From: an uncultured Gammaproteobacteria bacterium
GTDB lineage: Bacteria > Patescibacteriota > Microgenomatia > CAZETR01 > Amesbacteraceae
Assembly: GCA_964356225.1 (NCBI GenBank)
Contig: CAYHGA010000004.1
Location: 1-62,856, forward strand
DNA: 62,856 bases
Direction of reading: 5' to 3'
Shown: positions 7,874 to 60,369 of the stretch, in pieces
How the letters are laid out: each line of letters opens with the position of its first letter
Numbering within the stretch: position 1 is the first letter of the stretch
The notes under the pieces: model-generated
Told to the model about the DNA's origin: nothing
Databases searched by the model: none
The model's input: the letters and a program-made list of their open reading frames with translations, nothing else
Translations under genes and position numbers: made by a program

Positions 7874-7877
7874 TTAG

Positions 7878-8672: not shown

Positions 8673-8674
8673 AC

Positions 8675-20035: not shown

Positions 20036-20036
20036 A

Positions 20037-20461: not shown

Positions 20462-21677
20462 ACAGCAATAGGAACACAGTTGTAATCTTTATCACTAATA
20501 ATTATCTCCTCAGATAGTGAAGCCATTGTTCCTGCGATTTTACCTCCTACAATCCAGACGTTAAATTTACATTTTGGTGATTTGAGTAATTTTGGTTTGT
20601 TTGACGAAGTGTCAAAAGCCCATATCGAAGGAAGACCCAATCCGCGGAGTTGGCTAAAGCGACTTTTTTTGATGAAAAACTATCACCCTTGAGAAGAAAA
20701 TCTTGCGGGGGAGAACCTCTTGTGAATGGGTAGGTTACGGCAAAAAGGTTTGGTTGTTGTGCATAGGCAGAAACTAATAAAGATTTCTCTTCATATTTCG
20801 GACACCAAGTAGGGAAAACAGACCCCGGTGATCTTTGTCTTAATAAGGTTATTAAATCTGTTATACCAGGATTTATCATTCGCGGATCTCCGTCAACATA
20901 TAGAAGCGGAAAAGTTTTTATGTAATCAGGGCGATATTTTTGTGGATCTAAGAGTTCAACATAATTAAACAATTTTCTTTGAACCAGAACTTTAGCCATA
21001 AATTCCAAAGAAGCTCTCTCCCCAGTTTCCTTTGAGCCTCTGGCCGAGTTTATGAAGATTATCCCAAGTTTGGAATATTTCCCAGTATCAAAAAATTTAG
21101 CTAAAGTTTCAAGCGGTTTGTATGTTCCGCCATTTATTGTATTGAGACTGTCTAGTATTCCAAAGGCGTCGACCCATTGCGTATTTACCTCTATAATTTT
21201 TGGTCCATCTCTTCCTATGACGATATCAACTCGTGCGCCATTTGGTTTTTGAATTTCTGAGGTTGGAATATTTTTTAATACTTCAAAACCATCAAGTGCC
21301 GTCCTCTCAATTTGTTTTAGTTGTTCTCGCTTTAGTTTTAAAGGATCTAATATAAAGTTGACCGCTTTTTCTCCGTATGTACCCCCGGTTTGTTCAAGTT
21401 GCAATTGCATTCTCAGAGATTTTGCAGCCAAGTTGGCTGCTTCTGTTGTCGTTGCTCCAAACTTTTTAAACAGCTGCGATCTTCTTTGAAATTCATTTTT
21501 TGTATCAGATCTTATTTCTCTCACCAATGATGTTGATCTTGCTAATCCTCTTTGAGATTTTTCAAGTTCTGAAGGTTTTTTAATAAAGCTAGTTGCTTCG
21601 CCTAAAGCAGCACGATAAATCATGCCCAATTGTTGAGCACTCGTAGACTGTTCAATTAGTAAGTCTAATTCTTTCAT
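20458..21677 (-). pseudogene. ATP-grasp-like protein with apparent frameshift near 20640
   Basis: 376-aa ORF (RVDIVIGRDGPKIIEVNTQW) whose plausible C-terminus (KCKFNVWIVGGKIAG...ISD) continues in another frame, 20640..20458, coupled to the HAD start. Confidence 0.5.
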
Positions 21678-34866: not shown

Positions 34867-35559
34867 TTATTCATCATCCATATCGATTGCGGCTTCATAG
34901 ATAAATTGGGCGTCTATGGACATCCCCAGAAAATTAAAGTAAGAATTTTGGGGCTTATTTTTTGAAAAATAGCTAAGAATATAATCCTTTTTTATCCAGT
35001 CTGTATTTCGGTTTCCTAGATATTCAGGAAGAGAAGAAGGGAAGACAGATTCTTTCCAGCGACCCGGTGAAAGATGGAGAGCCTTAGTGGGATTAAGGTG
35101 AATGTAACGAGAGAGATGTAGCAGTTGTTCGTCTGATTCTATTAGAACGGCCTTGTAAACATCTTGGAATAAAACTCCCTTGCGTTTATATTTGCGATTA
35201 AAATACATGGCATATCTCGTACCTAGAGAGTTTGTAAAATTATTTATGACAATACCCTTTTGTCTTATGAGAAGATGGAAATGATTTGGTAATAAAGCAT
35301 AACAAAGTAACTCCAAATCATTGGAATAATTTTTCAATCTTAGCAGTTTGAGGGCTTTATCTTTTGGAGATGACTCATCAGAATTAAGAATTATTTGGAG
35401 TGCTTTTTCATCCTTGGGTGTAAGATAGGTTTGTAAGTAAGAAAGAAACACCGAGTAGTCTTGCTCATCTTGAAAAATTATTCTCTTTTCAACTCCACGG
35501 TTGTAAATATGGTAGTAAGAATTGGGGACGTATATTTTAGTTGAGTTTTTGGAGGCCAT
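34867..35559 (-). mobile_element. REP-associated tyrosine transposase (RAYT / IS200-like Y1 HUH)
   Basis: YYHIYNRG, YALLPNHFHLL (HUH), LFQDVYK and SRYIHLNP (catalytic Tyr); probable ATG at 35559. Confidence 0.88.
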
Positions 35560-35587
35560 TATTAAACGATATATGGTTTGATGTAAC

Positions 35588-35610
35588 TTTGCAAGAGGTC
35601 CTCTTGCAAA
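35588..35610. repeat. REP-like perfect palindrome, 5' of the RAYT gene
   Basis: TTTGCAAGAG-GTC-CTCTTGCAAA (10-bp stem, 3-nt loop). Confidence 0.85.
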
Positions 35611-35630
35611 TGGCGAAGTAGCGAGATCTA

Positions 35631-36275
35631 TTATAAAGTGCCGAGAAAGGTTGTGATTTCGTCGGCGACGGAGGTGGTGAAATGACGGTGGACCTGGGTG
35701 GTGGGAATCCACTTAAGTTGTTTGAAATCTCTACCGGGTTTTTGGACACCGTTAAGTAATTTGCAATGATAATAAAGAGCTACAATTCTGATTTTTTTCT
35801 CCGGAGAATCCGGGATAAGGCGGGCGTGAATCAGTCGGACAGGCTTAATATTCAGTCCTGTTTCCTCTTTTACTGTTTTCACCAAGGTGTTTTCAAAGTC
35901 TAGAGTATCTGCTTTTCCAGAGGGAAACGTCCAATGTAAATCTTCGACGTTTTGATCAGGAGACTTACGTAATCCGATAATTACACTATTTTTTTTGCTA
36001 ACAATTCCTATTACAACCACGATAGTGGGTTTGGATTTGGTTTGGGATAGAAGAGAATAATAAAGTTTAAGAATTTTATTGGCATCAGAATCATCAATTA
36101 TTTCAGTCTCCCCCACTTTTTTGGCTGAAGGTTTTTGAGAATTAATAAAAAATTCGATCATTTCTCGGAGCATTTCCGAGCGAGATCGGTGAAACTTGAG
36201 TTGCAAGTTATTAAGTATCTTTAGAGTTTCGCTTGGCAGAGAAAAGGCTGTAATCTGGCTTTTTCGTTTTGACAT
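35631..36275 (-). CDS. Ribbon-helix-helix + Nudix fusion protein
   Basis: ITAFSLPSETLKILNNL....RSRSEMLREMI (RHH); WTFPSGK...VKEETGL (degenerate Nudix box). Confidence 0.75.
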   Translation of the reverse strand: MSKRKSQITAFSLPSETLKILNNLQLKFHRSRSEMLREMIEFFINSQKPSAKKVGETEIIDDSDANKILKLYYSLLSQTKSKPTIVVVIGIVSKKNSVIIGLRKSPDQNVEDLHWTFPSGKADTLDFENTLVKTVKEETGLNIKPVRLIHARLIPDSPEKKIRIVALYYHCKLLNGVQKPGRDFKQLKWIPTTQVHRHFTTSVADEITTFLGTL

Positions 36276-36283
36276 TTATACAA

Positions 36284-36311
36284 ATTATAACAATTTTATA
36301 ACTTTCGTCAA
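36284..36311 (-). promoter_or_regulatory. sigma70 promoter with GTTATAA direct repeat (possible RHH operator)
   Basis: TTGACG-N16-TATAAT, 8 nt before the ATG; GTTATAA-AATT-GTTATAA overlaps the spacer and -10. Confidence 0.55.
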
Positions 36312-36431
36312 GTTATTGTTGAAAAATTTAGATTTTTTATTTGATAAGCACGAAATTAGGTAAATGAGGCTCTAACTCGGAATTAAATACTATTGACATG
36401 GATTTATATATTCTGCATGCTTTTGTTAGTA

Positions 36432-37385
36432 ATGAAAACAATTTGCGTTTTATTCAATAAACCGGAAAATATTTTTGACGAATCTGACTTGGACACGCAA
36501 AAATCTGCGGTGAGCATCGGAAGAGAATTAAGCGGAGTTGGTTATGATGTGCAGATTTTAGGAATTTCTCTTGATGAAATTGAAGAAGTGCGAAAAATTA
36601 AAGCGGATATCGTTTTTAATTTGGTGGAATGGACGGGAAAAAATATTGTCCAGGGAGTGAAAGTCATAAAGACGTTGGAAAAAATGCGGATACCTTTTGT
36701 GGGATCAGGAAGTTCCGGATTTTTATTGTCGTCAAATAAAGTGCTGATGAAAAAAGAGATGAAGAAAAATAATATCCGCACTCCCGAATTAAAATTCCCG
36801 GCAATTGTAAAACCTGCTTATGAACATTGTGGAATTGGCATTACGCAGAAGAGCATTGTTTATGACAGCAAAGAGTTGAGAGTTATGAGTTATGAGTTAA
36901 GAAAGAAATATAATCAACCCGTAATAGCTGAAGAGTTTATTGATGGGCGGGAATTGCAGGTGACAATTTTGGAGAAAAACGGCCGGCCGTGGGTGTTGCC
37001 GGCGGCGGAAGTGGTTTTCGACAAACCAAGAGCTGTTTTGTCTTATGAAATGAAGTGGGTGGAAAAATCGCCGGAGTATAGTGAGTCTCACATGGAAGCG
37101 GCTGACTTAAGTTCAAAACTCAAAACTCAAATTTCAAAACTGGCCCAAAAATGCTATTTAAAATTAGGAGGGAGGGATTATCCCCGACTGGATTTGCGGG
37201 TACGGGGCGGGGAAATATATGTGCTGGAGATTAACAATAATCCTGGGTTGGACTGGGATTTGGATTCGGGCATGGGAGTGTCGGCGCGGCTGGCCGGATT
37301 TAAAACTTACGGAGAATTGCTCACACATATAGTGGAAAACGCTTATTCCCGATTTGTAAGTAAACATGACGCCAGTTTCCTTTGA
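36432..37385 (+). CDS. D-Ala-D-Ala ligase-like ATP-grasp protein A
   Basis: VFNLVE, IVKPAYEHCGIGI, EEFIDGRE, RLDLR and LEINNNPGL motifs. Confidence 0.85.
   Translation: MKTICVLFNKPENIFDESDLDTQKSAVSIGRELSGVGYDVQILGISLDEIEEVRKIKADIVFNLVEWTGKNIVQGVKVIKTLEKMRIPFVGSGSSGFLLSSNKVLMKKEMKKNNIRTPELKFPAIVKPAYEHCGIGITQKSIVYDSKELRVMSYELRKKYNQPVIAEEFIDGRELQVTILEKNGRPWVLPAAEVVFDKPRAVLSYEMKWVEKSPEYSESHMEAADLSSKLKTQISKLAQKCYLKLGGRDYPRLDLRVRGGEIYVLEINNNPGLDWDLDSGMGVSARLAGFKTYGELLTHIVENAYSRFVSKHDASFL
36873..36900 (+). repeat. Heptamer tandem repeat inside ATP-grasp A
   Basis: gagttga gagttat gagttat gagttaa; encodes ELRVMSYELR. Confidence 0.8.
37113..37140 (+). repeat. Heptamer tandem repeat inside ATP-grasp A
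   Basis: tcaaaac tcaaaac tcaaatt tcaaaac; same unit as 704..731. Confidence 0.8.
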
Positions 37386-46588: not shown

Positions 46589-46763
46589 TTACCAACTTGT
46601 GAGCTTCACATCAAGGCCAAAAACGTACTCCTCTCCTGTATCCCCTCCCCTAAATACAATGGCTACGCTGGAGGGAAGGGGAACGAAAAAAGGTGAAAGA
46701 CTGCATGATCGTCGAACCTTAACTAATTATATTTAATCAGTACTTTGTGGCTACAGGTTATAA

Positions 46764-47657
46764 TTGATACAAATGCTAGATTTCGATAACATAAGCGTTG
46801 TTTTTATAACCCTTGACTCTTGCACTCTTGAGACTGCCCTAAAAGCTCAGACTACTAATCTAAATAAAATATCGCCCACCCTTGAGGGGGAAGCAAACTC
46901 TACATTTACTTATCCGGCTCATTATGCATTTTTTGCTGGCCATCTACCTAGACTCGTAAGCGAACGATATTATTTTGAGAGTTACACAAATATCTGGCGA
47001 TCAACTTTGGCTAGTGAACATAGTAATGAAACAATGTTAACTTTTGATACTAAAAACATAATAGATTATTATACAAATCTTGGTTTTAACGTTCGAGGTT
47101 ACGGCGGGGTGAGTTTCTTTGATACTTATAAGCGGAACAACAGTTTGCCTACTCTGTTTAGCAACTTTAGGTACTTTGGCTTGGAAAAAAATCCTCCTAT
47201 TAATGAAAGAGTACCAAGATTAGCATCATCTTTTCCGTTGAACAATATCAATGAAATACTTAATGACATCAACATTAATAAACCATTTTTTATTTTTATT
47301 AATTCTATTGCTACTCATATCCCATACGACACACCAGATTCTGTTTTACCAAAAGATTACTCAAACCTTGTTTCACGATTATACAAGGAGCACTATTCAA
47401 AACAAAGGCATCAATCGAACAAAATTCCCTTTTCTAAAGTTGAAGTGGAAATTTTTAAGAAACGTCAGGTGGAAGCACTAGAATGGGCGGACACTAAAAT
47501 TGGACTACTAATAAATGGGCTTCCTAAAAATAGACCAGTGCTTTTTCTGGCGTGTTCAGATCACGGCGAAGAGTTCGGCGAGGGTGGCCGGTTCGGTCAT
47601 GCACACTACCACCCAACAGTTATGAAAGTTCCACTTTGGTGTGGTTTAGTTAAATAA
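46764..47657 (+). CDS. Alkaline phosphatase/sulfatase-superfamily hydrolase (STM4013-like)
   Basis: FITLDS, TFTYPAHYAFFAG, GGVSFF, THIPY and SDHGEEFGEGGRFGH motifs. Confidence 0.8.
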   Translation: MIQMLDFDNISVVFITLDSCTLETALKAQTTNLNKISPTLEGEANSTFTYPAHYAFFAGHLPRLVSERYYFESYTNIWRSTLASEHSNETMLTFDTKNIIDYYTNLGFNVRGYGGVSFFDTYKRNNSLPTLFSNFRYFGLEKNPPINERVPRLASSFPLNNINEILNDININKPFFIFINSIATHIPYDTPDSVLPKDYSNLVSRLYKEHYSKQRHQSNKIPFSKVEVEIFKKRQVEALEWADTKIGLLINGLPKNRPVLFLACSDHGEEFGEGGRFGHAHYHPTVMKVPLWCGLVK

Positions 47658-47791
47658 CCTTTCCTTCGAAATATGACTATAGGACTATGTTATAATAATG
47701 TACATATATGAACGCACCTATAGCAAAATTGGTTGATCGTACTTTAAGATCGATTATGTTTCAACACTGAACGTGATATAAAACAAGCAAT

Positions 47792-49039
47792 ATGAGTACT
47801 AAAATTAAATTAATACAAACAATAAAGTCTCCTGATAATGACCCCATTGAGATTGTGGAAAGAAAAGGGTTAGGCCACCCAGATACGTTAGCTGATGGAA
47901 TTGCAGAATCTATTTCCATAGAATTTTCTAAGTTCACTCTAAAAAAATATGGCGCAATTCTCAATCATTGGGTAGATAAGGTTTTAATTACAGGTGCGCA
48001 AGGAGAAATCGATTTTGGTAAGGGAGTCCTAAGGAGTAAAATTCAGATTTACATATTCGGAAAAATGTCTAAGTCGTTCGCTGGAGAAAATATAGATATT
48101 AAACCTATTTGCAAAAAAGCAATAATAAATTTCCTTAGCGAAGCATTACCAACTCTAAACCTCGAACGAGACGTTCAAATAAATTTCACACAAAATGACT
48201 ATTCCAAAAACCCATATTGGATGAATCCGAGAAACCTAGGCGACCTGCCTAATAGAACAGATCCTAGATCAAATGATAGTTCCGTCTCGATCGCATATTG
48301 GCCCCTATCAAAAATGGAGCGGTTAGTTCTTGAAATCGAAAAATATTTTTACGATTTTAAACTAAGACCGAGATTTAGATATATAGGACAAGATATAAAA
48401 ATTCTACTCGTTAGGAATGATTGGAAAGTTGACATCACCTTATGTGTACCGTTTATTGCAAATGACTGTCCGAGTGAAGCCTTTTATTTAAGAAAAATGT
48501 CTGAAATAAAATTTGGTTTAATAAATAAAACCGAATCCTTTTTAGGAAGTAAGTACAAAACGCATATTGATATAAACAACGCGGATAAAATGCCTAAATT
48601 AAAGAGAACAAAAAGAAAGGGATACTATATGTTAGTGTCGGGAAGTTCTTTAGACGATGGAGAAGTGGGAGTTGTAGGGAGAGGTAATCCTGCAACAGGG
48701 GTAATCTCATCATATCGAATCCATAGCGTTGAAGCGCCTTATGGGAAAAATCCCGTGTACCACGCTGGTAAGGTCTATCACTATTTATCACAAAAAATTG
48801 CACGAAAAGTATCCAATTTATATAACGCTAATACCACAGTGATAATTGCAAGCAAGATGGGAGACAAAATTATAAACCCTGCAAATATAATAATCGAGAT
48901 CAACAAGAAGTTTGATAAACAAAAGGTTAAAGAATTGGTCTTAGATGTGTTAAGAGGTTCTGACTGGGCACGCGAGATTATTACAAGTAGATATTTTATT
49001 CCTAAACCTGGTGGTGCAGATAATTATGGAGGGACTTGA
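47792..49039 (+). CDS. Archaeal-type S-adenosylmethionine synthetase
   Basis: IEIVERKGLGHPDTLAD, NDSS, GQDIK, VGRGN and EAPYGKNPVYHAGK motifs. Confidence 0.88.
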   Translation: MSTKIKLIQTIKSPDNDPIEIVERKGLGHPDTLADGIAESISIEFSKFTLKKYGAILNHWVDKVLITGAQGEIDFGKGVLRSKIQIYIFGKMSKSFAGENIDIKPICKKAIINFLSEALPTLNLERDVQINFTQNDYSKNPYWMNPRNLGDLPNRTDPRSNDSSVSIAYWPLSKMERLVLEIEKYFYDFKLRPRFRYIGQDIKILLVRNDWKVDITLCVPFIANDCPSEAFYLRKMSEIKFGLINKTESFLGSKYKTHIDINNADKMPKLKRTKRKGYYMLVSGSSLDDGEVGVVGRGNPATGVISSYRIHSVEAPYGKNPVYHAGKVYHYLSQKIARKVSNLYNANTTVIIASKMGDKIINPANIIIEINKKFDKQKVKELVLDVLRGSDWAREIITSRYFIPKPGGADNYGGT

Positions 49040-50453
49040 AAAAGAAGCCAGAATCGCAACAAGAGTCGCTGTGTCGCCAACTAATAAAGACATGAAACTA
49101 GGCGCATACAGAACGTGCGCTTACTCTTATTTAATCGCTTTAGCAAGTAAAAATAAAGGAGAAGACTCATTTTGCGTTTTACGTTGTGATGATTCTGACC
49201 CAGTAAAACATAAAAAAGAAAACTTTGTGTCTTTACAAAATGTTTTTACTAACGAAATGGGTATGGCTTTTGAAGCCACTCCTCAAGATGAGCAAGTAGG
49301 ATTGGTTAAATTTATTCAAGCAAAAAAGCTTCCAACGAATGAATTTTTATCGACTTCGCGCGCGACGTCTCTCTACCAATCTGAAAGAACATTAATTTAC
49401 CAACATTTTGTGGAGAAACTTTTGTCGAATGGGCTTGCATTAAAAGGAGGCGACGGGTCGATCCTTTTCGATGTAAGACAATATATAGAGTTATTTGGAT
49501 CACAAATTGTCCTATCAGATCTTGTTTGGGGTAAAAGAGCTATAGATTTAATCAAGTTAACAGATTTTGGTTCTATTAGCAGGAAAAATGACAACTCCAA
49601 ATTTTATTTAATTTTTCCGAATGGACGTGTGCTTTTCCATCTTGCAGCTGTTGTCGATGACCACACGTGGGGAATTACACACATTGTTAGAGGAGTCGAT
49701 TTAAAGCCTGCACAATTATACCAGGACATGTTAAGAAGGGCGTTAGGTTTTGGTGATGTAGATTATATATATACTCCAATGCTAAAAGGTGACACCTCAA
49801 CTAGATATTTTGAATTAATTAAACACGGTTTTCCTGCCGGAGCTCTTATTTCATATATGATTTCTTCAGGTTATGATGATCCGGATAGGTTATATTCTGG
49901 GCTTGATGAAGCGGCCAATGGTTTTGATCTAACCAAAATCCATCGTTCAAATTCTGATTTTAGTATAGGAAAATTAGAATCAATAACCAAAAAACTCGCA
50001 AATAAAGACTCGGTTGATCCAAAGCGCACTCGAAGTTCTTTAGTTAGATACTTCAAGATTTTGGGTGAGGATCAGTTAGCCGAAGAAATATCAAACAATA
50101 TTCCTTTCTGGAATTTAATACATAATGAAAGAAGAACTCTTGCTGAACTTGCAGATTATGTAAAACGAACGGTGTCGCCTAATTATACAACTGAAAATGG
50201 CATTATCTTAGCAAGAATTAGGGAATTGTGTAAAACCCTAGTTATCAAAGCTGAAAACTTGACTACTGACAACCCAGGGAATTTTGTCACCGAGTTAAAT
50301 TTGCCCAAGGAAGACATTTCTTTTATCAGGTGGATACTTCTTGGCAGAATGAGTGGTATTAATCCAATTTATGCATTACAATACTTGGTTGAGAAGGGGT
50401 TGTTGAAGACAAGGGTGGATGCTTGTGTTAATTATATAGATAGTGTAAAATGA
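49011..50453 (+). CDS. Divergent glutamyl-tRNA synthetase-like protein (HIGH and KMSKS motifs degenerate)
   Basis: TRVAVSPT, LRCDDSD, YQSER, HLAAVVDD..WGITHIVRG; HIGH position reads MKLG; no KLSKR. Confidence 0.8.
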   Translation: MVQIIMEGLEKEARIATRVAVSPTNKDMKLGAYRTCAYSYLIALASKNKGEDSFCVLRCDDSDPVKHKKENFVSLQNVFTNEMGMAFEATPQDEQVGLVKFIQAKKLPTNEFLSTSRATSLYQSERTLIYQHFVEKLLSNGLALKGGDGSILFDVRQYIELFGSQIVLSDLVWGKRAIDLIKLTDFGSISRKNDNSKFYLIFPNGRVLFHLAAVVDDHTWGITHIVRGVDLKPAQLYQDMLRRALGFGDVDYIYTPMLKGDTSTRYFELIKHGFPAGALISYMISSGYDDPDRLYSGLDEAANGFDLTKIHRSNSDFSIGKLESITKKLANKDSVDPKRTRSSLVRYFKILGEDQLAEEISNNIPFWNLIHNERRTLAELADYVKRTVSPNYTTENGIILARIRELCKTLVIKAENLTTDNPGNFVTELNLPKEDISFIRWILLGRMSGINPIYALQYLVEKGLLKTRVDACVNYIDSVK

Positions 50454-51064
50454 TATCTAAATTATTTAATAAAAATAAGAATAGGTGTATGGAAAGGGCA
50501 AAGTATTTTTTACATGGTGGAGCAACAGGAAAAGATACGGAAAGAAATCACGTTTTTTTTCGTGAGATAATAGATAGTGTTGGAAATAAACCGATAAATA
50601 TTTTGCTTATCTACTTTGCGAGAGCAGAGGGTGTTTGGAGATCTCTTTTTGAAGAAGACATGAAAAAGTTCACAGAAGCCTCGTTTCGAAGAGGCTTACA
50701 CAATATCGAGGTAGGCGATATTAACGTCGGTATTCTTTCTGATCAGATTAAAGAGGCAAACATTATTTTTATAAGAGGAGGAGATACTGACAAATTACGT
50801 AGAAAAATGGACGAAGTTGCCAATCTTGAAGATCTTTTACAGGGCAAAGTGATAGCAGGTTCATCTGCAGGAGCTTACATATTAAGCAGCTACTATTATG
50901 CAAATAGCAAGAACGAAATTAAACAGGGGATGGGGATACTTCCCATTAAAATCTTCGCACATTATTCAGATGATCAAATAGATAATTTCAGAAAGTTGGA
51001 AATGTTTGGACCTGACATGCCGGTTTTGAAAATTGAAGAAGCCGACTTTGAAGTTTATACATAA
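50450..51064 (+). CDS. Peptidase S51 (dipeptidase E / cyanophycinase-like)
   Basis: LHGG, IRGGDT, IAGSSAGA and FAHY motifs. Confidence 0.85.
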   Translation: MISKLFNKNKNRCMERAKYFLHGGATGKDTERNHVFFREIIDSVGNKPINILLIYFARAEGVWRSLFEEDMKKFTEASFRRGLHNIEVGDINVGILSDQIKEANIIFIRGGDTDKLRRKMDEVANLEDLLQGKVIAGSSAGAYILSSYYYANSKNEIKQGMGILPIKIFAHYSDDQIDNFRKLEMFGPDMPVLKIEEADFEVYT

Positions 51065-51722: not shown

Positions 51723-53447
51723 ATGCCTGCCCAGAATTCCGACGATGCGGGAGTGGTGGATGTCCTGCTAAAAGAAAAAAAAGTAACGGCCGAGGAGGCT
51801 AAAAGCGCCCAAATGGCGTTTGTGGCTACCGGGAAAAAAGCTACGGAATGGCTGATGGAGCAAGGCAAAACCACGGAGGAAGACGTGATTGTGGCCCGGG
51901 CGGCTTTTTACAATGTGCCGTTTATAAAATTGTCCGAGCAGGCGATTTCCCCGATTGCTTTGTCCTATATCGATCAGCCGGTGGCGCAGAGATTTATGGC
52001 TATGCCTTTTGATTACAAACCAGAAGCCCACGAGCTGTGGGTGGCTATGGCCAACCCGGTAGACTTGGCGGCCATTGAATTTCTGGAAAAAAGGTCGAAG
52101 CTGCGGGTTAAACCGTATGCGGCGATGCCAGCAGAGGTAGCGAAAGCCATAGATACCCGGTATGAACAGAGCTTGTCCGGCGAAGTGACGGCGGCGTTGA
52201 AGGAAGCCGGTGGAAATACGGCGACGGCGGAAGTGAAAACGGTAGATGTGCGGCGGATGGGAGAACTAATCAAGGAGGCTCCGATTGCCAAGATTGTGAC
52301 TACGATTTTGGAGTTTGCCATGAAATCCAGGTCCAGCGATGTGCACATTGAGCCGATGGAAGGGCGGACGAGAGTAAGATACCGGATTGATGGTATTTTG
52401 CACGAAAAATTGGTGCTGCCGCGGCGAATTCACGAGGCGCTGATTTCCCGGATCAAAATTTTGTCGGATATGAAGATTGATGAGAAAAGAATTCCCCAGG
52501 ATGGCAGATTTAACTTCCGGACTGAAGTCGAAGAGGTGGATTTGCGGGTATCTACACTGCCCACGGCTTTTGGGGAAAAAGTAGTGATGCGGCTTCTGAA
52601 AAAATCGGGGGGGGTGCCGACGTTGCAGGAATTGGGTTTACGGGGACGGGCGCTGAAGAACCTGGAAGAAGCGATACTGCGGCCGCATGGAATAATTTTG
52701 GTGACCGGGCCGACCGGATCGGGAAAAACTACGACTCTGTATTCGGTGCTGTCACGGATCAGTACCGTAAAAGTGAATGTGGTGACGATTGAAGATCCGG
52801 TGGAATACCAGATTCCGGGAGTGAACCAGGTACAAATTAATCCCCAGGCGGGGCTGACTTTTGCCTCGGGACTGCGGGCGTTTTTGCGGCAGGACCCGAA
52901 CGTAATTATGGTGGGAGAAATCCGGGATCAGGAGACGACGGATTTGGCTACCCAAGCGGCCCTGACCGGGCATCTGGTGTTTTCCACTTTGCATACCAGT
53001 TCCGCGGCGGGAGCGTTGCCGAGACTTTTGGACATGAAAGCAGAGCCTTATTTGCTGGCATCGACAATGACCTGCATTGTGGCCCAGCGGGTGGCCAGAA
53101 AGATTTGCCAGACGTGCAGAAAACCATATGAACCGGTGCCGGAAGTGGTGAAAGATATCAAGGATATTTTAGGTAAGTTATGGGCGCCTGAAGAGAAAGT
53201 AATGTTATACAAAGGCGAGGGCTGTGAGGAGTGCGGGCGGGCCGGATACCGGGGAAGGACGGGCATATTTGAGGTGTTGCCGGTTTCGGAAAAAATCGGG
53301 AGGTTAATTTTAGAGCGGGCGCCGGCGGTAGACATTGAGAAACAAGCGGAAGAAGAAGGTATGATTACTATGAAGCAGGACGGTTATTTGAAAGTTGTCG
53401 AAGGGCTAACGACAATTGATGAAGTTCTGCGGGTGGCCCAGGAATAA
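51723..53447 (+). CDS. pilB: Type IV pilus assembly ATPase (PilB/GspE)
   Basis: SDVHIEP, PQDGR, GPTGSGKTTT, LRQDPNVIMVGEIRD, TGHLVFSTLH and Cys4 motif. Confidence 0.95.
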   Translation: MPAQNSDDAGVVDVLLKEKKVTAEEAKSAQMAFVATGKKATEWLMEQGKTTEEDVIVARAAFYNVPFIKLSEQAISPIALSYIDQPVAQRFMAMPFDYKPEAHELWVAMANPVDLAAIEFLEKRSKLRVKPYAAMPAEVAKAIDTRYEQSLSGEVTAALKEAGGNTATAEVKTVDVRRMGELIKEAPIAKIVTTILEFAMKSRSSDVHIEPMEGRTRVRYRIDGILHEKLVLPRRIHEALISRIKILSDMKIDEKRIPQDGRFNFRTEVEEVDLRVSTLPTAFGEKVVMRLLKKSGGVPTLQELGLRGRALKNLEEAILRPHGIILVTGPTGSGKTTTLYSVLSRISTVKVNVVTIEDPVEYQIPGVNQVQINPQAGLTFASGLRAFLRQDPNVIMVGEIRDQETTDLATQAALTGHLVFSTLHTSSAAGALPRLLDMKAEPYLLASTMTCIVAQRVARKICQTCRKPYEPVPEVVKDIKDILGKLWAPEEKVMLYKGEGCEECGRAGYRGRTGIFEVLPVSEKIGRLILERAPAVDIEKQAEEEGMITMKQDGYLKVVEGLTTIDEVLRVAQE

Positions 53448-54484
53448 TGAGGACAATACAGGAATTATTGCAATATGTAATTGATAATAAGGGGTCGGAT
53501 TTGCATGTGGTGGTGGGGGCGGCGCCGACGATACGGTTGGATGGAGTACTGGTGCCGGTAGCCGGCGAAGCAGTACTGACCCCCCTGTCGGCGGGACAAC
53601 TGGTAAGCGGTGTGTTGTCGGTTGAACAAAAGGAGGTGCTGACGGTAAACCGGGAATTGGATTTTTCTTTTACACTGGCGGAAAAAGCCAGATTCCGGGT
53701 GAACGCGTATCAGCAAAAAGGATCGATGGCGGCGGCTTTCCGGTTAGTGCCGGCGGTAATTCCGGGAATTGAGGAGTTAGGGTTGCCGAAGATTTGTCAT
53801 CAGTTTGCGGCCCTGAAACAGGGGTTTATTTTAGTGACAGGGCCAACCGGACACGGGAAATCGACAACCTTGGCTGCCATTTTGCAAGAAATTAACCGGA
53901 CCCGGCCGGTGCATATCGTGACCATTGAAGACCCGGTGGAATATGTGTATACGCCGGAAAGAGCATTGGTGTCCCAGAGAGAAATCCGCCAGGATACGCA
54001 TTCCTGGGAAATAGCCTTGCGTTCGGTGTTACGGGAAGACCCGGACGTGGTGCTGATCGGGGAAATGCGGGATTTCGAAACTATCGCGGCGGCGTTGACG
54101 ATTGCGGAAACGGGGCATTTGGTGTTTGCCACACTGCACACTAATTCGGCGGCCCAAACAGTAGACCGGATTGTGGATGTATTCCCGGAATCTCAACAAG
54201 CTCAGGCCAGATTGCAACTGTCGGCGAATTTGGAAGCGGTGTTGTCGCAAAGACTGATCCCTAAAATAACCGGCGGGCGGACAGTGGCCTATGAAATTAT
54301 GCTGGGGAGCGGGGCGGTAAAGACGGCTATCCGCGAAGGACGGACGCACACTTTGGACAACATTATCACGACTTCGGCGGAAGTGGGGATGGTGAGTCTG
54401 GAATCTAACTTGGAGGCGCTGGTGAAAGCGGGAACTATTACTTTGGAAACGGCTCAAGCTTATGGGCTGAAAAGGAACGTATGA
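53447..54484 (+). CDS. pilT: Type IV pilus retraction ATPase
   Basis: RFRVNAY, GPTGHGKSTT, LREDPDVVLIGEMRD and AETGHLVFATLHT motifs. Confidence 0.95.
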   Translation: MRTIQELLQYVIDNKGSDLHVVVGAAPTIRLDGVLVPVAGEAVLTPLSAGQLVSGVLSVEQKEVLTVNRELDFSFTLAEKARFRVNAYQQKGSMAAAFRLVPAVIPGIEELGLPKICHQFAALKQGFILVTGPTGHGKSTTLAAILQEINRTRPVHIVTIEDPVEYVYTPERALVSQREIRQDTHSWEIALRSVLREDPDVVLIGEMRDFETIAAALTIAETGHLVFATLHTNSAAQTVDRIVDVFPESQQAQARLQLSANLEAVLSQRLIPKITGGRTVAYEIMLGSGAVKTAIREGRTHTLDNIITTSAEVGMVSLESNLEALVKAGTITLETAQAYGLKRNV

Positions 54485-55671
54485 GGTTTCGATATAAAGC
54501 CCGGGACGCGCATGGAGCAGAAGTGAAGGGAGTATTGGACGCGCAGGATGCCAAGAACGCGGCGGGAATATTGCGGGAGAAAAAACTGACAGTGATTTCC
54601 GTTTCCAAGGAACTGGAGAGTTTAAATTGGGGAGGATGGGGACGGGTTAATCCGTCCGAAGTGACTAACTTTACCCGGCAGCTGGCAACAATGATCAATG
54701 CCGGATTGCCGATTATAGACGCATTGAATTTGTTGCGACTGCAATCCGGACCCCACATGAGCGGGGCAGTGGGACAAATCATGGCGGATGTACAATCCGG
54801 TGTGTCTTTAAGTGAAGCGATGAGCAAGCACCCGGCGCTGTTTTCAAAAGTATATGTGGCCCTTGTTAAGGCTGGAGAAGCGGCGGGGGTAGTGGAAACA
54901 ATTCTGATTAGGCTGTCAGATACTCTGGAAAAAGGGCGGGTGTTCCGGGGTAAAGTAGTATCTGCCATGATTTATCCGGCCATAATTCTCATCGGAATGG
55001 TGGGGGTGATGATTCTGATGATGGTAGTAGTGATACCCAAGCTGACCGAAGTATATAAACAGTTTGATACTCAATTGCCGCTGGCGACCCGGATAGTGGT
55101 GGGAACGTCTGACGCCTTCATGAAATATTGGTGGCTGATTGCCATCGGGGTAGTCGGGGTAGCCGGGGTAGTCGGGGGATATATGAAGACGCCGGCGGGA
55201 CGGAGATGGTGGGATTCTCTGGCATACAAGTTTCCGGTAATGGGAGCGTTGGCCCGGGAGGCGATGCTGGCAGAACTAACGCGCACACTAGCCTTGTTGG
55301 TCGGATCCGGAGTGGCGATTGTGGAGGCGATTAATATAGTGGCCGGAGCGGTGGGAAATGTAATAGTGGAGGCAGAAATGAAATTGATTGCCAAGCGGGT
55401 GGAGAAAGGGTTTTCTCTGGCAGTGAGCTTTGGGGAATCGCCCAGTTTCCCGCCCATTGTGGGGCAAATGGTGGCCGTAGGGGAAGAGACGGGCAAACTG
55501 GATGACGTTTTGTCTAAGCTGTCTACCTTTTTTGAGGAAGAGAGTGAACAGAAAGTGAAAAACTTGACAACAGCCTTGGAACCCATCATATTAATAGTTA
55601 TGGCATTGGGAGTGGGATTTTTGATGTACGCGATAATTATGCCGATTTACGGAATTACTAATCAGATATGA
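54481..55671 (+). CDS. pilC: Type IV pilus platform protein (PilC/GspF)
   Basis: FTRQLATMINAGLP, AMIYPA, VGEETGKLD and LEPII motifs. Confidence 0.94.
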   Translation: MRFRYKARDAHGAEVKGVLDAQDAKNAAGILREKKLTVISVSKELESLNWGGWGRVNPSEVTNFTRQLATMINAGLPIIDALNLLRLQSGPHMSGAVGQIMADVQSGVSLSEAMSKHPALFSKVYVALVKAGEAAGVVETILIRLSDTLEKGRVFRGKVVSAMIYPAIILIGMVGVMILMMVVVIPKLTEVYKQFDTQLPLATRIVVGTSDAFMKYWWLIAIGVVGVAGVVGGYMKTPAGRRWWDSLAYKFPVMGALAREAMLAELTRTLALLVGSGVAIVEAINIVAGAVGNVIVEAEMKLIAKRVEKGFSLAVSFGESPSFPPIVGQMVAVGEETGKLDDVLSKLSTFFEEESEQKVKNLTTALEPIILIVMALGVGFLMYAIIMPIYGITNQI

Positions 55672-55694
55672 TTATGATTGGGGGTGACAGATAA

Positions 55695-56129
55695 GTGATT
55701 AAAAAAGGTTTTACACTAGTAGAGCTTTTGGTAGTTATGGCGGTGTTGGCAGTTTTGGCTTCCGGGTTAATTGTTGCGATAAACCCAGCCGATAAAATTG
55801 CGGCAGCAAATGACACTAAAGTACAAAACGATATTTCGCAGATAGCTGCGGCGCTGGTAGCGTATTCTGCTGCGAATAGCGGAGATTTTCCAACAAATCT
55901 AGATGCTTTGAATGCTGCAGGAAGTGGAGATTTAACAGTGGTTCCTTCTGCTCCAACTAACTATACTGCTTACGCTTATTCTTATAATAACACTGCAATT
56001 CCGCCAACCGCCCAGGTTGGAGGACAATTAAAGGCGAAGAAGTATACGAACGCAAGCACTCCCGCGTGGGTTTGGTGTTCGAGTGTGGCTAAAGCGGGGC
56101 CTACAGCAACAACGGCTACGTGTCCTTGA
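55695..56129 (+). CDS. Type IV pilin (probable major pilin)
   Basis: KKG/FTLVELLVV class III signal; C-terminal Cys pair. Confidence 0.9.
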   Translation: MIKKGFTLVELLVVMAVLAVLASGLIVAINPADKIAAANDTKVQNDISQIAAALVAYSAANSGDFPTNLDALNAAGSGDLTVVPSAPTNYTAYAYSYNNTAIPPTAQVGGQLKAKKYTNASTPAWVWCSSVAKAGPTATTATCP

Positions 56130-56836
56130 TGTGGTTTGTTTTAGGTTTAATTGCGGGGAGCGTGGCGAATGCGATGGTTGATCGGCTCCCCCGGCGGGAG
56201 TCGTGGTTTGCCGGCCGGTCGCATTGTGATAAATGCGGACATGTGTTGGGAGTCGCGGATTTGGTGCCGGTAGTTTCGTATTTGAGTTTGGGGGGGAAGT
56301 GCAGGTATTGCCGGTCCCCTATTGGGAGGAGAAACCTGGTTGTTGAGTTGTTTCTTGGCCTGTCATTCATAGTCATAAATGGTCATTCATGGTCATACAA
56401 TAGTTTGATTTTGAGCGCGATACTGTGGGTGACGGTGATGATTGCGGTGATGGATTGGGAAACACAGTTGGTTAGTGATTGGCTGGTGGGGGTGTGGTTT
56501 GTTTTGATAATATTCAATGTTCAATATTCAATATTCAATATATACGGGTTGTTAGTTGGAGCAGGAGTTATTGGGGGTTTGTGGCTGGTGACAAAAAAAA
56601 GAGGGATGGGAGAGGGAGATATCGGGATTGCGGCGGTAATGGGGTATTGGCTAGGGTGGCCGAGAATTGCTCCAGCTTTGTGGATTGCGTTTGTAGCTGG
56701 AGCGGCTTATGGTCTTTGGCTATTAGTCTTTGGCAAGATGACGATGAAGAGCAAGATAGCTTTTGGGCCGTGGTTGATGTTGGGGGCGTGGGTGGGATTT
56801 TATTGGGGACAATCTCTAATTGACCTAATTACCTAA
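56120..56836 (+). CDS. pilD: Prepilin peptidase
   Basis: RSHCDKC...D.VP..SY..LGGKCRYC, MDWE, GMGEGD and FGPWL motifs. Confidence 0.92.
   Translation: MSLMWFVLGLIAGSVANAMVDRLPRRESWFAGRSHCDKCGHVLGVADLVPVVSYLSLGGKCRYCRSPIGRRNLVVELFLGLSFIVINGHSWSYNSLILSAILWVTVMIAVMDWETQLVSDWLVGVWFVLIIFNVQYSIFNIYGLLVGAGVIGGLWLVTKKRGMGEGDIGIAAVMGYWLGWPRIAPALWIAFVAGAAYGLWLLVFGKMTMKSKIAFGPWLMLGAWVGFYWGQSLIDLIT
56361..56400 (+). repeat. 10-bp tandem repeat inside pilD
   Basis: tgtcattcat agtcataaat ggtcattcat ggtcatacaa. Confidence 0.6.
56513..56540 (+). repeat. Heptamer tandem repeat inside pilD
   Basis: ttcaatg ttcaata ttcaata ttcaata; encodes FNVQYSIFNI. Confidence 0.85.
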
Positions 56837-56854
56837 TTGGTCTAAATTTATCTA

Positions 56855-57313
56855 GTGGATGGTTTTTCAATTTTAGATTGGAAGAAGGGCGAGATGGGGT
56901 TTGTGGTGGCGGTATTGTTGGTTATTGTGGGCATCTCTGGATTGCAGTTAAGAGTAAGCCAGATGAAGACGCGGGATGCGCAAAGGAAGGCTGATGTGGA
57001 GCTGGTGGGGCGGGCGCTCTCCGTTTATCTGGAGGATCATAAGATTTTGCCGGCGGCGGATGAGGGGAAAATTGTGGGTTGTGGATATCTGGGGGGTGAG
57101 GTGTGTGAATGGGGAGGAGGGCCGATGATTGATGCCGAAGGAGTTACATATCTCAAAAAATTACCGGGAGATCCTTGGTCCGCTAAAGGTTGGAAGTATA
57201 TGTACAGCACGAATGCAGAGAGGACCAGATATAAAATATGCATTAGTCTGGAATATAAAGCTGACAAAGAGTTTAAAAAGGATATACAATGTAATTGGTA
57301 TGCGAAAAACTAG
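56855..57313 (+). CDS. GspG-like pseudopilin with degenerate cleavage motif
   Basis: RDAQRKADV...AL..Y..D...LP and YLKKLPGDP motifs; N-terminus KKGEMGFVV lacks G/F-x3-E. Confidence 0.7.
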   Translation: MDGFSILDWKKGEMGFVVAVLLVIVGISGLQLRVSQMKTRDAQRKADVELVGRALSVYLEDHKILPAADEGKIVGCGYLGGEVCEWGGGPMIDAEGVTYLKKLPGDPWSAKGWKYMYSTNAERTRYKICISLEYKADKEFKKDIQCNWYAKN

Positions 57314-57668
57314 AAAGGCGTTTACATTAGTTGAGCTGATTATTGTGATGTCGATCATCGCGATTTTCGGGGGAATGGTGATGGCTACTTCTGTGACGGG
57401 AAATCTGCAAAAAGGTCGGGATGGAAGGCGGCAGACTGATCTGGAGGCGATTAGATCGGCGCTGGAAATATACAGGAGTGATAAGGGAGAGTACCCGGCG
57501 ACAGGCTCTTTGAATTTATTGGCCCTGGATTACATATCTGTGATACCTAAGGACCCTCAAGATCCGGCTAGAACTTATACATATACTTCCGGGGGGACTA
57601 CGTACCAACTGTGCGCAGACTTGGAAAAGGTGGCAGGAGTGAACGATTATTGTGTGACCAATCCATGA
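57300..57668 (+). CDS. Type IV pilin / GspG-like
   Basis: KA/FTLVELIIV, RDGRRQTDL..IRSALE.Y and IPKDP motifs. Confidence 0.88.
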   Translation: MRKTRKAFTLVELIIVMSIIAIFGGMVMATSVTGNLQKGRDGRRQTDLEAIRSALEIYRSDKGEYPATGSLNLLALDYISVIPKDPQDPARTYTYTSGGTTYQLCADLEKVAGVNDYCVTNP

Positions 57669-58108
57669 GGAAAGCGTTTACAATAGTAGAATTGCTGGTG
57701 GTGATGGCTTTGATTGCGCTGATGGCCGGTTCGGGGGCGGCGATTTCCTTGTCTGCTGGGCGGAAGAAAGCGGTGGAGGAAGCGGCAGAAAATTTGGCTT
57801 CGGCCATGCGGCAGGCTCGGGATTATGTACAGGCCGGGAAGAAAGATGCAGGTTGTGCAGCATCTCTGGACGGATGGCAAGTGAAGGTAGATGTTGATGG
57901 CTATACAGTGCAAGGTAAGTGTGGGGGAACATATTTTGGAAGTCCAAAGAAGAACTTCCAAAACGGAGTGACGTCGAATAGCGGAACAGTGTTCTTTTAT
58001 CCGCTATCTTTGGGAGCAACTTTAACTGGTGCACCCTTTACTTTGACCTCGAATAATCATACAAAAACTGTGACTGTGACTGAGAATGGGGAGGTAAGCG
58101 TACCATGA
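57665..58108 (+). CDS. Minor pilin (FimT/FimU-like)
   Basis: KA/FTIVELLVV; LASAMRQARD. Confidence 0.82.
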   Translation: MRKAFTIVELLVVMALIALMAGSGAAISLSAGRKKAVEEAAENLASAMRQARDYVQAGKKDAGCAASLDGWQVKVDVDGYTVQGKCGGTYFGSPKKNFQNGVTSNSGTVFFYPLSLGATLTGAPFTLTSNNHTKTVTVTENGEVSVP

Positions 58109-58981: not shown

Positions 58982-59686
58982 TTGATGAAACCGGGACAAG
59001 CATTGATAGCGGTGTTGCTGATTTTGGCGGTGATTATGACGGTGTCGTTGTCGATTGCCTCCAGGTCAGCCACAGAAGTAAGCGTATCAACGGCGCAGGA
59101 GGAAGCGGCGCGGGCGCTGGCCGCGGCGGAAGCCGGAGTGGAGGCGAAATTGGGAGGAATAACTACCGGGAGTGGGCAGGTGGGGACCAGTGGTTCGACT
59201 TATACGGTGGAGTTGACAGATTTCGGGGCAGTGAGTACCTCGTTTGTCCTGCCCCAACTGTTGGCGTCCGGCGAATCGGTGAGTGTGAATTTGACAGGGT
59301 ATGGAGCGAATAGTATTGGAGTATGTTGGAACGGGGGAGGAGATTTGGAGACTGCCTTTTATTATGGAAATCCTGTGGCGGTGACGAGAGATTATTTTAC
59401 TACTCCCGCTGGAAATTGTCTCGGGTATAGTGGTTACAATTTCCGGACGGTAGTCTTGGGTGGATCACCGGAACTGTTTTTAAGGTTAAAATTGTTGAAA
59501 AATGCTACAAATGGTCAATTGGTTATTATACCTGCTCCCAATTCTGGTTTACCGAAACAAGGAGATACGATTACGGCTGTGGGGCAGGCGGGAGAATCGG
59601 TGCGCAAGGTAGAAGTTAATAAACAGGACGAGATACCGGATATATTTGAAGCGGCTTTATTTTCCGGAGGAAGTTTAAGCAAGTAA
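58982..59686 (+). CDS. Minor pilin (PilX-like)
   Basis: PG/QALIAVLLIL (no E5); A.AAAEAGVE. Confidence 0.8.
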   Translation: MMKPGQALIAVLLILAVIMTVSLSIASRSATEVSVSTAQEEAARALAAAEAGVEAKLGGITTGSGQVGTSGSTYTVELTDFGAVSTSFVLPQLLASGESVSVNLTGYGANSIGVCWNGGGDLETAFYYGNPVAVTRDYFTTPAGNCLGYSGYNFRTVVLGGSPELFLRLKLLKNATNGQLVIIPAPNSGLPKQGDTITAVGQAGESVRKVEVNKQDEIPDIFEAALFSGGSLSK

Positions 59687-59983
59687 TTGGCCGAAACGGC
59701 GGATTTCGGCAGCCAGTGGATCGTAGGGATTGTCGATATCATTTATTCCGAAGGGGAGGGCTTCGATACGATCATCTACGCGTCGAGATATTTGACGCAA
59801 TTTAACCATTTCGTCAATTAAGTCTTTTCCGAAGTTAGGAGAAACTACACAAATATCTATGTCGCTATATGATTTAGCCTTTCCTTTGGCGTATGATCCA
59901 TATAAATAGGCTTTACTAACCGGAATTCCCACAATGACCAATTCGTCAATGAACTTTTTGCCGATAGAAATAGGGTCAGTCAT
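59675..59983 (-). CDS. Minimal nucleotidyltransferase (MNT) antitoxin
   Basis: YLYGSYAKG...SDIDICVVS. Confidence 0.9.
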   Translation of the reverse strand: MTDPISIGKKFIDELVIVGIPVSKAYLYGSYAKGKAKSYSDIDICVVSPNFGKDLIDEMVKLRQISRRVDDRIEALPFGINDIDNPYDPLAAEIRRFGQLLA

Positions 59984-60369
59984 GGTAATAATCCCAGATA
60001 CTTATCAAATAATTTTTCCCCGGATTCCATCCAGGTTTTGGTGTATTTCGGCGTGGCCTTTTGATGAAGTTTTAATTTAAAGATGTCGTATCTGGCCGCT
60101 ATATTGAATGTAGAAATTTCATCCAGCTCGAGTTTTTCTGATTCAGATGCCTCAATTCCTGCCTTGGTGGCCAATTTGTACAGATCATGAATAAATAACG
60201 AAGGTTCATGCTTAAGATGTTGGTGGACTCCTTTGATAATTTTTTCTATGGCTAAATGGAGAAAAAACAGGGCATGGGCATATTTACCTTGTTTGAATAG
60301 ATCTTCGCCGAGTTTTATATCTTCAATTGCACTTGATTTCCATGCCTGCACGGCGTCCAGTTCTGTCAT
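59980..60369 (-). CDS. HEPN domain protein
   Basis: ALFFLHLAIEKIIKG, HDLYKL and ARY motifs; ATG at 60369; coupled to the MNT gene. Confidence 0.88.
   Translation of the reverse strand: MTELDAVQAWKSSAIEDIKLGEDLFKQGKYAHALFFLHLAIEKIIKGVHQHLKHEPSLFIHDLYKLATKAGIEASESEKLELDEISTFNIAARYDIFKLKLHQKATPKYTKTWMESGEKLFDKYLGLLP

Follow-up and report, generated by a model that had tools for sequence, protein, structure and literature searches.

A family of glutamyl-tRNA synthetase paralogs without the ATP-binding motifs, linked to a peptidase S51 hydrolase and S-adenosylmethionine enzymes in Patescibacteria

Paralogs of aminoacyl-tRNA synthetases (aaRSs) without amino-acid activation have repeatedly proved to be new enzymes or regulators, among them the cyclodipeptide synthases (CDPSs), GluQRS, HisZ and EpmA. 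GluQRS is about 300 amino acids (aa) long, has no anticodon-binding domain and keeps the ATP motifs. HisZ, a class II HisRS-like regulatory subunit of ATP phosphoribosyltransferase, has lost aminoacylation but keeps ligand binding, and has a defined partner, HisG. Other enzymes draw on the product of glutamyl-tRNA synthetase (GluRS): the Glu-tRNA(Glu)-dependent glutamylation enzymes (LanB dehydratases, PEARLs) use GluRS-made Glu-tRNA as the acyl donor in biosynthetic clusters, often together with a peptidase. CDPSs are class I aaRS-like enzymes that lack both HIGH and KMSKS and use aminoacyl-tRNA rather than ATP (PMC3105412). Here we describe a GluRS-like gene, called the paralog below, on contig CAYHGA010000004.1 of assembly GCA_964356225.1; the whole analysed stretch of 62,856 nucleotides (nt) is called the window. 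The protein belongs to a distinct and old clade of bacterial-type GluRS paralogs, which is known so far solely from metagenomes of Patescibacteria or similar bacteria of the Candidate Phyla Radiation (CPR). The gene and the elements that define it are as follows.

49026..50453, + strand: GluRS-like paralog, 475 aa (open reading frame, Pfam, NCBIfam, PDB, alignments, fold model, tree)
49092..49106, + strand: HIGH-equivalent M23-K24-L25-G26-A27 (alignments, fold model)
49635..49700, + strand: conserved active-site core FHLAAVVDDHTWGITHIVRGVD, the most conserved block in the family (mean column conservation 0.61)
49776..49805, + strand: shortened loop PMLKGDTSTR replacing the KMSKS (KLSKR) loop, with a gap of 9-10 residues relative to canonical GluRS
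50013..50450, + strand: all-helical C-terminal domain, equivalent to the anticodon-binding domain of bacterial GluRS (model, Foldseek)

The open reading frame (ORF) of the paralog is intact on the + strand, with its stop codon at 50451-50453. The ATG at 49026, which gives 475 aa, was the start chosen by the gene callers in four independent assemblies, all of them from one groundwater well (Hain_H52; 0.1 and 0.2 µm fractions). The first-pass annotation of the window had placed the start at 49011; an in-frame GTG does lie there, 15 nt upstream, as an alternative start that would give 480 aa, but it is not the start used in those assemblies. The similarity to GluRS was far above chance in the Pfam, NCBIfam, PDB sequence and Foldseek searches. 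The protein matched Pfam PF00749 with an E value of 1.1e-13 and TIGR00464 (gltX_bact) with 2.1e-26, whose 92.9 bits did not reach the equivalog cutoff of 289.95, and it scored about 54 bits against the GluQRS models of NCBIfam (NF004314, E 1.6e-14), below their cutoffs of 256-277. A PDB sequence search returned 24 GluRS or GluQRS chains, and neither Pfam nor NCBIfam held a model specific to this family. The nucleotide sequence of the paralog was recovered at an identity of at least 99.8% in contigs of several samples, and the window sequence recurs in groundwater metagenome runs of four studies from 2019-2025.

When the protein was aligned with canonical GluRS, the segment SPTGxLHIGGART fell on SPTNKDMKLGAYRT, so that H-I-G-G is replaced by K24-L-G-A. 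About 25 extra residues precede YQSER, while R-x-x-x-SP, RCDDSD, YQSER and HLAAVVDD...ITHIVRG are all retained. The core FHLAAVVDDHTWGITHIVRGVD contains what we take to be the equivalents of Tyr187, Asp194/195, Arg205, Gly206 and Asp208, in the numbering of Thermus thermophilus GluRS. The first-pass annotation had described a full-length GluRS paralog without both class I ATP signatures, and alignment and fold model agree. They likewise bear out its statements that HIGH reads MKLG (nt 49092-49103), that LKGDTSTR stands in for the KLSKR loop, here 9-10 residues shorter, and that GluRS-like elements are kept along with a C-terminal region of the length of an anticodon domain. The Zn loop was also said to be absent, and the connective insertion, which carries the Zn site in some GluRSs, is indeed shorter by about 45-60 residues; the Zn site is missing from many GluRSs, so this shortening is not diagnostic.

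An AlphaFold2 model built from 27 family sequences was confident (pLDDT 91.6, pTM 0.88). K24-L-G-A lies at the N-terminus of the first helix (25-43) after strand 1 (10-16), the place of HIGH in class I synthetases. In a Foldseek search against the PDB, at least 40 bacterial GluRS chains ranked first (E 1e-19 to 1e-14), and the TMq value against full-length GluRS was 0.66-0.72 over about 500 aligned columns. Against GluQRS (1NZJ, 4A91) TMq was just 0.41-0.43, with the C-terminal half unmatched. The structure prediction thus gave a confident, full-length bacterial GluRS fold. Residues 332-474 are helical in the model at a pLDDT of about 90; this C-terminal domain carries the motif IRWILLGR where canonical GluRS has PLRxALTG, and R435, G440 and K441 have conserved equivalents across the family.

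The family itself was delimited by an exhaustive HMMER scan over 1.84 billion cluster representatives, which gave 1285 matches at E ≤ 1e-3, 108 clusters at E ≤ 1e-10 and 28 at E ≤ 1e-30. Word-indexed searches were swamped by canonical GluRS: a single protein retrieved itself and distant canonical GluRSs, and a family profile retrieved two or three members. The HMMER matches split cleanly by motif. The first 60 or so (24-42% identity) were family-type and read R-x-G-[IV]-SP-x5-[KR]-[IL]-G-x-x-R-[TS], with a variable KLSKR-loop site (GKRLKG, GKRFVSD, RLSTR, or the loop deleted), while matches from about E 1e-17 down were canonical, with RFAPSPTGxLHIGGART and KLSKR. The ATP motifs were then scored in an alignment of 71 sequences, comprising 58 family members, 12 canonical GluRSs and T. 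thermophilus GluRS, the last of which was used solely as a numbering ruler.

His of HIGH (H15): family 0 of 49 scorable members (Arg in 22, Lys in 10, others); canonical 12 of 12
Ser of KLSKR: family 1 of 58; canonical 12 of 12
Second Lys of KLSKR: family 2 of 58; canonical 12 of 12

The loss of both motifs in the window protein is therefore shared family-wide, a conservation in homologues that the first-pass annotation had left to be checked. Kept across the family are R5, S9/P10, D41/D42, Q82-S-E-R85, Y/F187, D194, D195, T201, H202, R205, G206 and D208. From T. thermophilus GluRS structures we take glutamate binding to be the task of R5, S9, E41, Y187, N191, R205 and W209, and ribose binding that of E208. 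A family-specific change of E41 to Asp was found in 53 of 53 members, giving R-C-D-D-T-[ND], which resembles the RFDDTNP of GlnRS and archaeal GluRS. Lys occupies the W209/H position in 49 of the 58 members; the window protein and its subclade are without that Lys, the window protein having Leu. An Arg at window residue 237 (R237) is near-invariant, and SSGYGDPD stands where canonical GluRS has LLGWS. The motif set of the family (R-x-G-[IV]-SP...[IL]G-x-x-R[TS], R-C-D-D-T-[ND], SSGYGDPD, LRW-x-L-x-GK) can be recognized in the window protein as RVAVSP...LGAYRT, RCDDSD, SSGYDDPD and IRWILLGR. Column conservation across the family peaks in the active-site core, at 0.52-0.61.

A neighbour-joining tree was computed from 24 family members, 16 canonical GluRSs, 5 co-resident CPR GluRSs and 1 GluQRS. 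All 200 bootstrap replicates grouped the family members together, apart from GluQRS and from canonical GluRS, the co-resident CPR genes included; the method is distance-based, and the position of the root is not resolved. Mean identity was 0.29 within the family, 0.22 between family and canonical GluRS, and 0.20 between family and co-resident GluRS. With about 60 related clusters and a clade of its own, the paralog is not an isolated decaying copy without conserved homologues, and judging by its sequence the window gene is best read as a functional family member. One family locus comes from a genome labelled "Patescibacteria group bacterium". Six members (P0048, P0051, P0056, P0059, P0067 and P0081) have Trp at otherwise invariant Gly positions, e.g. 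RVWISPVKWNLWIWALRS. We read these sequences as coming from organisms with UGA=Gly (code 25), whose proteins the source collections had derived with a table that reads UGA as Trp, in which case the family would also occur in Gracilibacteria or Absconditabacteria.

Besides its motifs, the family is characterized by its gene neighbours. About 36 family loci were collected. A genome scan with a family profile, whose patterns canonical GluRS shares, gave at least two true family loci, and a family-specific C-terminal block served as the query on metagenomes. Genes in 33 of the loci were labelled by iterative profile searches seeded from the window, L007, L008 and L091, whereas the labels in L118-L120 are those of a Pfam annotation; Pfam and NCBIfam also served to verify which domains were present. 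At 70% identity the first 33 loci form 15 lineages. In 11 of the 13 lineages having flank, a Peptidase_S51 gene (S51; a PepE/cyanophycinase-type Ser-His hydrolase) is found no more than 1 kb from the paralog. A methionine adenosyltransferase (MAT, the S-adenosylmethionine (SAM) synthetase) or a DUF62 SAM hydrolase is found no more than 3 kb from it in 10 of 14 lineages, usually as its direct neighbour. The first-pass annotation had pointed to the adjacent SAM synthetase, and this link recurs in most lineages, but it had overlooked S51 as the most constant partner. Among 21 distinct S51 sequences, the Ser of G-x-S-A-G and the His are conserved in at least 80%, which suggests that the partner hydrolase is apparently active. 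The gene orders observed were as follows.

Type A: MAT - S51 - paralog (L094, L101-103, L105, L106)
Type B: DUF62 SAM hydrolase - HprK-like P-loop protein - glycosyltransferase - S51 - paralog (L007, L097-100, L107; L095 is cut upstream; L104 and L118 are without DUF62)
Type C: MAT - AlaRS-like 391-aa protein - S51 - methyltransferase - paralog (L008, L108-109; L110 is without MAT)
Type D: MAT - paralog - sulfatase-like - S51 (- PHP phosphoesterase) (L091/92, L117; L087 is without S51; in the window the sulfatase-like gene comes first)
L114: MAT - paralog - GT2 - S51
L116, 4184-9591: GluRS - Peptidase_S66 (LD-carboxypeptidase/MccF) - paralog - 379-aa class II (Asp/Lys/Asn-type) aaRS catalytic domain, with two methyltransferases and an aminotransferase upstream
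L119: GT - Asn-synthase-like - unknown - radical SAM - paralog - GluRS
L120: MAT divergent from the paralog

The paralogs of L097 (type B) and L102 (type A) are 77% identical and thus closer to each other than those of L007 and L097, both type B, at 68%; it follows that near relatives have swapped their MAT and DUF62 modules. A canonical GluRS is found in the same locus in four lineages (L007/L113, L087, L116, L119). Tailoring-type neighbours vary among loci and include a methyltransferase, glycosyltransferases, a kinase-like P-loop protein, sulfatase-like proteins and PHP phosphoesterases, and other aaRS-like domains. The 391-aa protein of type C (L008 5334-6509; L108/L109 3690-4880; L110 4540-4872) had no Pfam match and matched AlaRS only weakly (TIGR00344, E 5e-4; PDB 3WQY), with local likeness to AlaRS motifs (IADGCFGMERFSW; REGVVPSHKDPGYRLRQ); it may represent a further component derived from an aaRS, this one of class II. 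The PHP-family phosphoesterase occurs in two lineages (L091 11153-12870, L087 3140-4069), its best NCBIfam match being 3',5'-nucleoside bisphosphate phosphatase, below cutoff, and in L091 a Ser/Thr-kinase-like gene comes after it. The family pattern found no member in IMG/VR, and a phage origin was dropped.

Within the window, the paralog belongs to a cassette of four genes, the other three being listed here.

46764..47657, + strand: sulfatase/alkaline-phosphatase-superfamily hydrolase (STM4013/SEN3800-like), the first cassette gene (Pfam Sulfatase 4.8e-10; NCBIfam NF038075 3.4e-31, below cutoff)
47792..49039, + strand: archaeal-type MAT (PF01941 4.1e-83; NF003362 365 bits against a cutoff of 481)
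50450..51064, + strand: Peptidase_S51 (PF03575 1.1e-12)

The window MAT aligned over its full length with Pyrococcus furiosus MAT (6S81), with the motifs GHPD, GDDG-VGRGN and GKNPV-H-GK kept. The MAT stop overlaps the start of the paralog and the stop of the paralog overlaps the S51 ATG (ATGA), and these overlaps indicate that MAT, paralog and S51 form one operon. The sulfatase-like family also adjoins the GluRS-like gene in L087, L091/L092 and L117. In a low-coverage contig from the 0.2 µm fraction (L004), elsewhere 99.8-100% identical to the window, 739 bp within the sulfatase-like gene (window 46622-47360) are replaced by 100 unrelated bases (L004 4600-4699); this contig is either a strain variant without an intact sulfatase-like gene or an assembly artefact. 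The cassette (46764-51064) is an island of 36% guanine-plus-cytosine (GC) content in flanks of about 50%, with sharp borders, between gyrB and a holB-like gene; this four-gene low-GC island had also been overlooked in the first-pass annotation. Cassette GC was lower than that of both flanks in 11 of 13 loci, and the cassette is likely a mobile accessory one. Other low-GC patches of the window (36-41% against about 50%) lie at 5795-9778, 18029-21677 and 34867-37385. They hold isoprenoid genes (two NUDIX, an amino-acid-kinase-family gene, UPP synthase and polyprenyl synthase), HisRS and DUF3800, and also a Y1 (IS200-like) transposase-like ORF and a D-Ala-D-Ala-ligase-like ATP-grasp protein. The genome is thus compositionally mosaic, with housekeeping genes in its low-GC parts.

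PADLOC defence models gave no meaningful match for any of the four cassette proteins, and scanning the cassette for promoters and terminators gave results no better than chance. A terminator-like hairpin with a T-rich tail does lie inside the paralog at 49099-49123, over the HIGH-equivalent codons; the hairpin count being at chance level, it was taken as a chance match. Directly downstream of the cassette, on the + strand (51723-58100), is a type IV pilus/type II secretion-like cluster with two T2SSE ATPases, a T2SSF platform protein, a prepilin peptidase (A24) and several pilin-like ORFs with N-methyl motifs. Farther on, on the - strand (59675-60369), an NTP_transf_2/Polbeta nucleotidyltransferase gene and a HEPN gene overlap by 4 nt in the usual layout of HEPN-MNT toxin-antitoxin pairs, an annotation taken from L001/L002 and mapped onto window coordinates.

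Given these features, we tentatively favour the reading that the paralog binds tRNA and, without adenylating, works as a transferase on a SAM-linked adenosyl substrate, S51 being the hydrolase that partners it. The paralog would no longer activate glutamate with ATP: since the KMSKS loop is unconstrained or deleted and the His of HIGH is never present, formation of Glu-AMP by the paralog has, on the evidence of the motifs, probably been lost. It would bind tRNA and an already activated glutamyl moiety, most simply Glu-tRNA(Glu) from canonical GluRS. A transferase from Glu-tRNA(Glu) is the simplest model, given that the paralog retains the Glu pocket and an architecture for tRNA binding and often has gltX as a neighbour, and canonical GluRS in the same locus fits a paralog that depends on the supply of Glu-tRNA. 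The glutamyl moiety would then be moved to an adenosine-containing acceptor placed where ATP once bound; such a ligand is suggested by the ribose-binding G206/D208 and by the constant SAM-making or SAM-cleaving enzyme. SAM or a nucleoside derived from it would serve as the acceptor, and the neighbouring MAT or DUF62 would supply or trim it. The S51 hydrolase would process or reverse the product: S51 enzymes (PepE, cyanophycinase) cut after N-terminal acidic residues, those of the PepE type removing them, and this makes S51 a plausible candidate for processing a glutamyl adduct or for undoing its formation. The variable neighbours would tailor the product.

A number of observations weigh against this proposal. 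The identity of the acceptor is a guess. It is the fold that suggests tRNA binding by the paralog; the Pfam anticodon-domain model PF19269 found no match in its C-terminal domain, which is also the least conserved region of the family (column conservation 0.15-0.31). No tRNA gene was consistently linked to the cassette in the 25 loci examined, and just tRNA-His and tRNA-Leu, both distant, are present in the window; the hypothesis of a dedicated tRNA was dropped on these grounds. The partners are not universal either: L087 has no S51 within 8 kb and L116 has Peptidase_S66, which appears to replace S51 there, and four lineages have neither MAT nor DUF62, two of which (L116, L119) have SAM-using methyltransferases or a radical SAM protein nearby. 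Arg or Lys at the position of the HIGH His (32 of 49 members), the family Lys (49 of 58) and the near-invariant R237 make a non-canonical ATP site conceivable, even if the subclade of the window protein is without that Lys. The gene was absent from all RNA-seq runs searched. Finally, the other low-GC patches of the window carry housekeeping genes, so low GC alone is no proof of an accessory cassette.

We think it rather unlikely that the paralog is a SAM-dependent tRNA or RNA modifier, which would hold SAM in the Glu-AMP site, its adenosine filling the ATP pocket and its methionine part the amino-acid pocket, and would move a methyl or 3-amino-3-carboxypropyl group onto the 3' end of the tRNA or onto some other nucleotide, the loss of cationic motifs accommodating the sulfonium. 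Such an enzyme would fit the conserved SAM-making or SAM-cleaving neighbour of two interchangeable types, the kept anticodon-binding-domain fold, and an active site that conserves the ribose-binding G206/D208 and both Arg of the amino-acid pocket after losing the phosphate-binding motifs. It would leave the constant S51 hydrolase without an obvious role, however, and Arg or Lys at the HIGH position in 65% of members is unexpected beside a sulfonium; by geometric reasoning the carboxylate of SAM would not reach the place that the Glu gamma-carboxylate takes, and the DUF62 hydrolase destroys SAM and does not supply it. A further explanation is a non-canonical ATP-dependent ligase, in which substitute basic residues would serve to adenylate glutamate or a related acid for ligation to tRNA or a small molecule, as in GluQRS and MshC. 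This is unlikely in our view. Arg or Lys for the HIGH His, the Lys at the W209/H position and the Arg at residue 237 would suit it, a few members retain RLSTR or RLSSR in the loop, and some ArgRSs function without canonical KMSKS, but no member has His at the HIGH position, the loop is conserved in neither sequence nor length and is deleted in the window subclade, and the window protein itself has Leu where the family has Lys.

No more probable than such a ligase is an inactive, ligand-sensing or scaffolding pseudo-synthetase that would regulate S51 or the SAM enzyme, as HisZ does with HisG, perhaps sensing glutamate, SAM or uncharged tRNA. Missing ATP motifs beside kept ligand-pocket residues, tight coupling to the S51 and MAT genes with often overlapping frames, and the established existence of aaRS-derived regulatory subunits such as HisZ speak for it. 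Yet the active-site core is the most conserved block of the family, the partners vary (MAT, DUF62 or neither), and the neighbourhood, with its glycosyltransferases, methyltransferases, kinase-like proteins and phosphoesterases, resembles a tailoring pathway and not a two-protein regulatory pair. Somewhat less probable again is a cassette that runs adenosyl-based rather than adenylyl-based chemistry, with a phosphate-free amino-acid-adenosine conjugate replacing Glu-AMP and being used on tRNA or another acceptor. MAT and DUF62, both substituting at adenosine C5', would make the conjugate (SAM, or a 5'-aminoacyl or 5'-aminoalkyl adenosine), the paralog, with amino-acid and ribose pockets but no phosphate-binding motifs, would bind it, and S51 would be a reversing esterase or peptidase. 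An ordinary divergent GluRS or a decaying pseudogene copy is very improbable, and both readings were rejected. The former agrees with the JGI pipelines, which label family members "glutamyl/glutaminyl-tRNA synthetase", but the ORF is intact and recurs nearly unchanged across samples and studies, the clade stands apart from canonical GluRS and scores far under the NCBIfam cutoff, canonical GluRS co-exists in the same loci, and the fold model is confident.

The first-pass annotation had suggested a non-adenylating tRNA-binding enzyme, for instance a Glu-tRNA-dependent transferase or deacylase, or one that binds another nucleotide such as SAM; this interpretation pointed in the right direction and is partly supported. 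What is added here is a sizeable, conserved and mis-annotated family that stands at the centre of a recurring cassette shared with S51 and SAM enzymes. It is an aaRS-derived, probably non-translational paralog not already known as a family, and the chemistry proposed for it is read from motifs, fold and neighbours. Neither the family nor the cassette turned up in the full-text literature searched or in the Pfam, NCBIfam and PADLOC libraries, and the literature was also silent on STM4013 function. A GluRS look-alike family without ATP motifs from groundwater ultra-small bacteria is thus apparently undescribed. Plain GluRS labels in public pipelines inflate the apparent copy number of GluRS and conceal the family, whose hosts, the CPR/Patescibacteria, have a largely unknown biochemistry. 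The conserved linkage of an ATP-motif-less paralog to S51 and SAM enzymes suggests new synthetase-derived chemistry. If the paralog uses Glu-tRNA or SAM, it would catalyse a new tRNA-dependent or SAM-dependent reaction in a tractable three-protein system of MAT or DUF62, paralog and S51. If it is instead a regulatory protein, HisZ would gain a counterpart in class I, and if the cassette runs on adenosyl chemistry, a new aaRS-derived tRNA-linked reaction and a previously unknown SAM-linked pathway specific to ultra-small bacteria would follow.

Among the systems named at the outset, the CDPSs (AlbC family) are the best mechanistic precedent, the absence of the motifs being common to both. They have a TyrRS/TrpRS-like (class Ic) single-domain Rossmann fold without a C-terminal domain, whereas the present family is GluRS-derived and keeps that domain; no CDPS was among the best 50 Foldseek matches of the paralog, and no sequence relationship to CDPSs was detected. 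With LanB dehydratases and PEARLs the analogy is functional only, since their folds are unrelated to the family and no precursor-peptide gene was identified at family loci. HisZ is likewise an aaRS paralog encoded with a metabolic partner, but the present family has varying partners, and its conservation is highest in the active-site core. GluQRS/YadB is, like the family, a GluRS-derived paralog not directly serving translation and shares its catalytic core (Foldseek 1NZJ, 4A91), yet its pattern is the opposite: the family keeps the C-terminal domain and loses the ATP motifs, at 475 aa against about 300 aa. This contrast, drawn in the first-pass annotation, is borne out by the coverage of the fold search and by the GluQRS model scores far below cutoff. 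Bacterial GluRS (GluRS-B/GlxRS-B; PDB 2CFO, 8JPV, 1J09) has the same architecture of a Rossmann catalytic domain and a helical anticodon-binding domain, and shares R-x-x-x-SP, DD, QSER, HL-x-VVDD, THV-RG-D and the C-terminal LR-x-L-x-G. Unlike it, the family is without the HIGH His and the KMSKS loop, has a shortened connective insertion and Asp for E41 (53 of 53), carries its own K209, R237 and SSGYGDPD motifs, is linked in operons to S51 and SAM enzymes, and co-exists with canonical GluRS.

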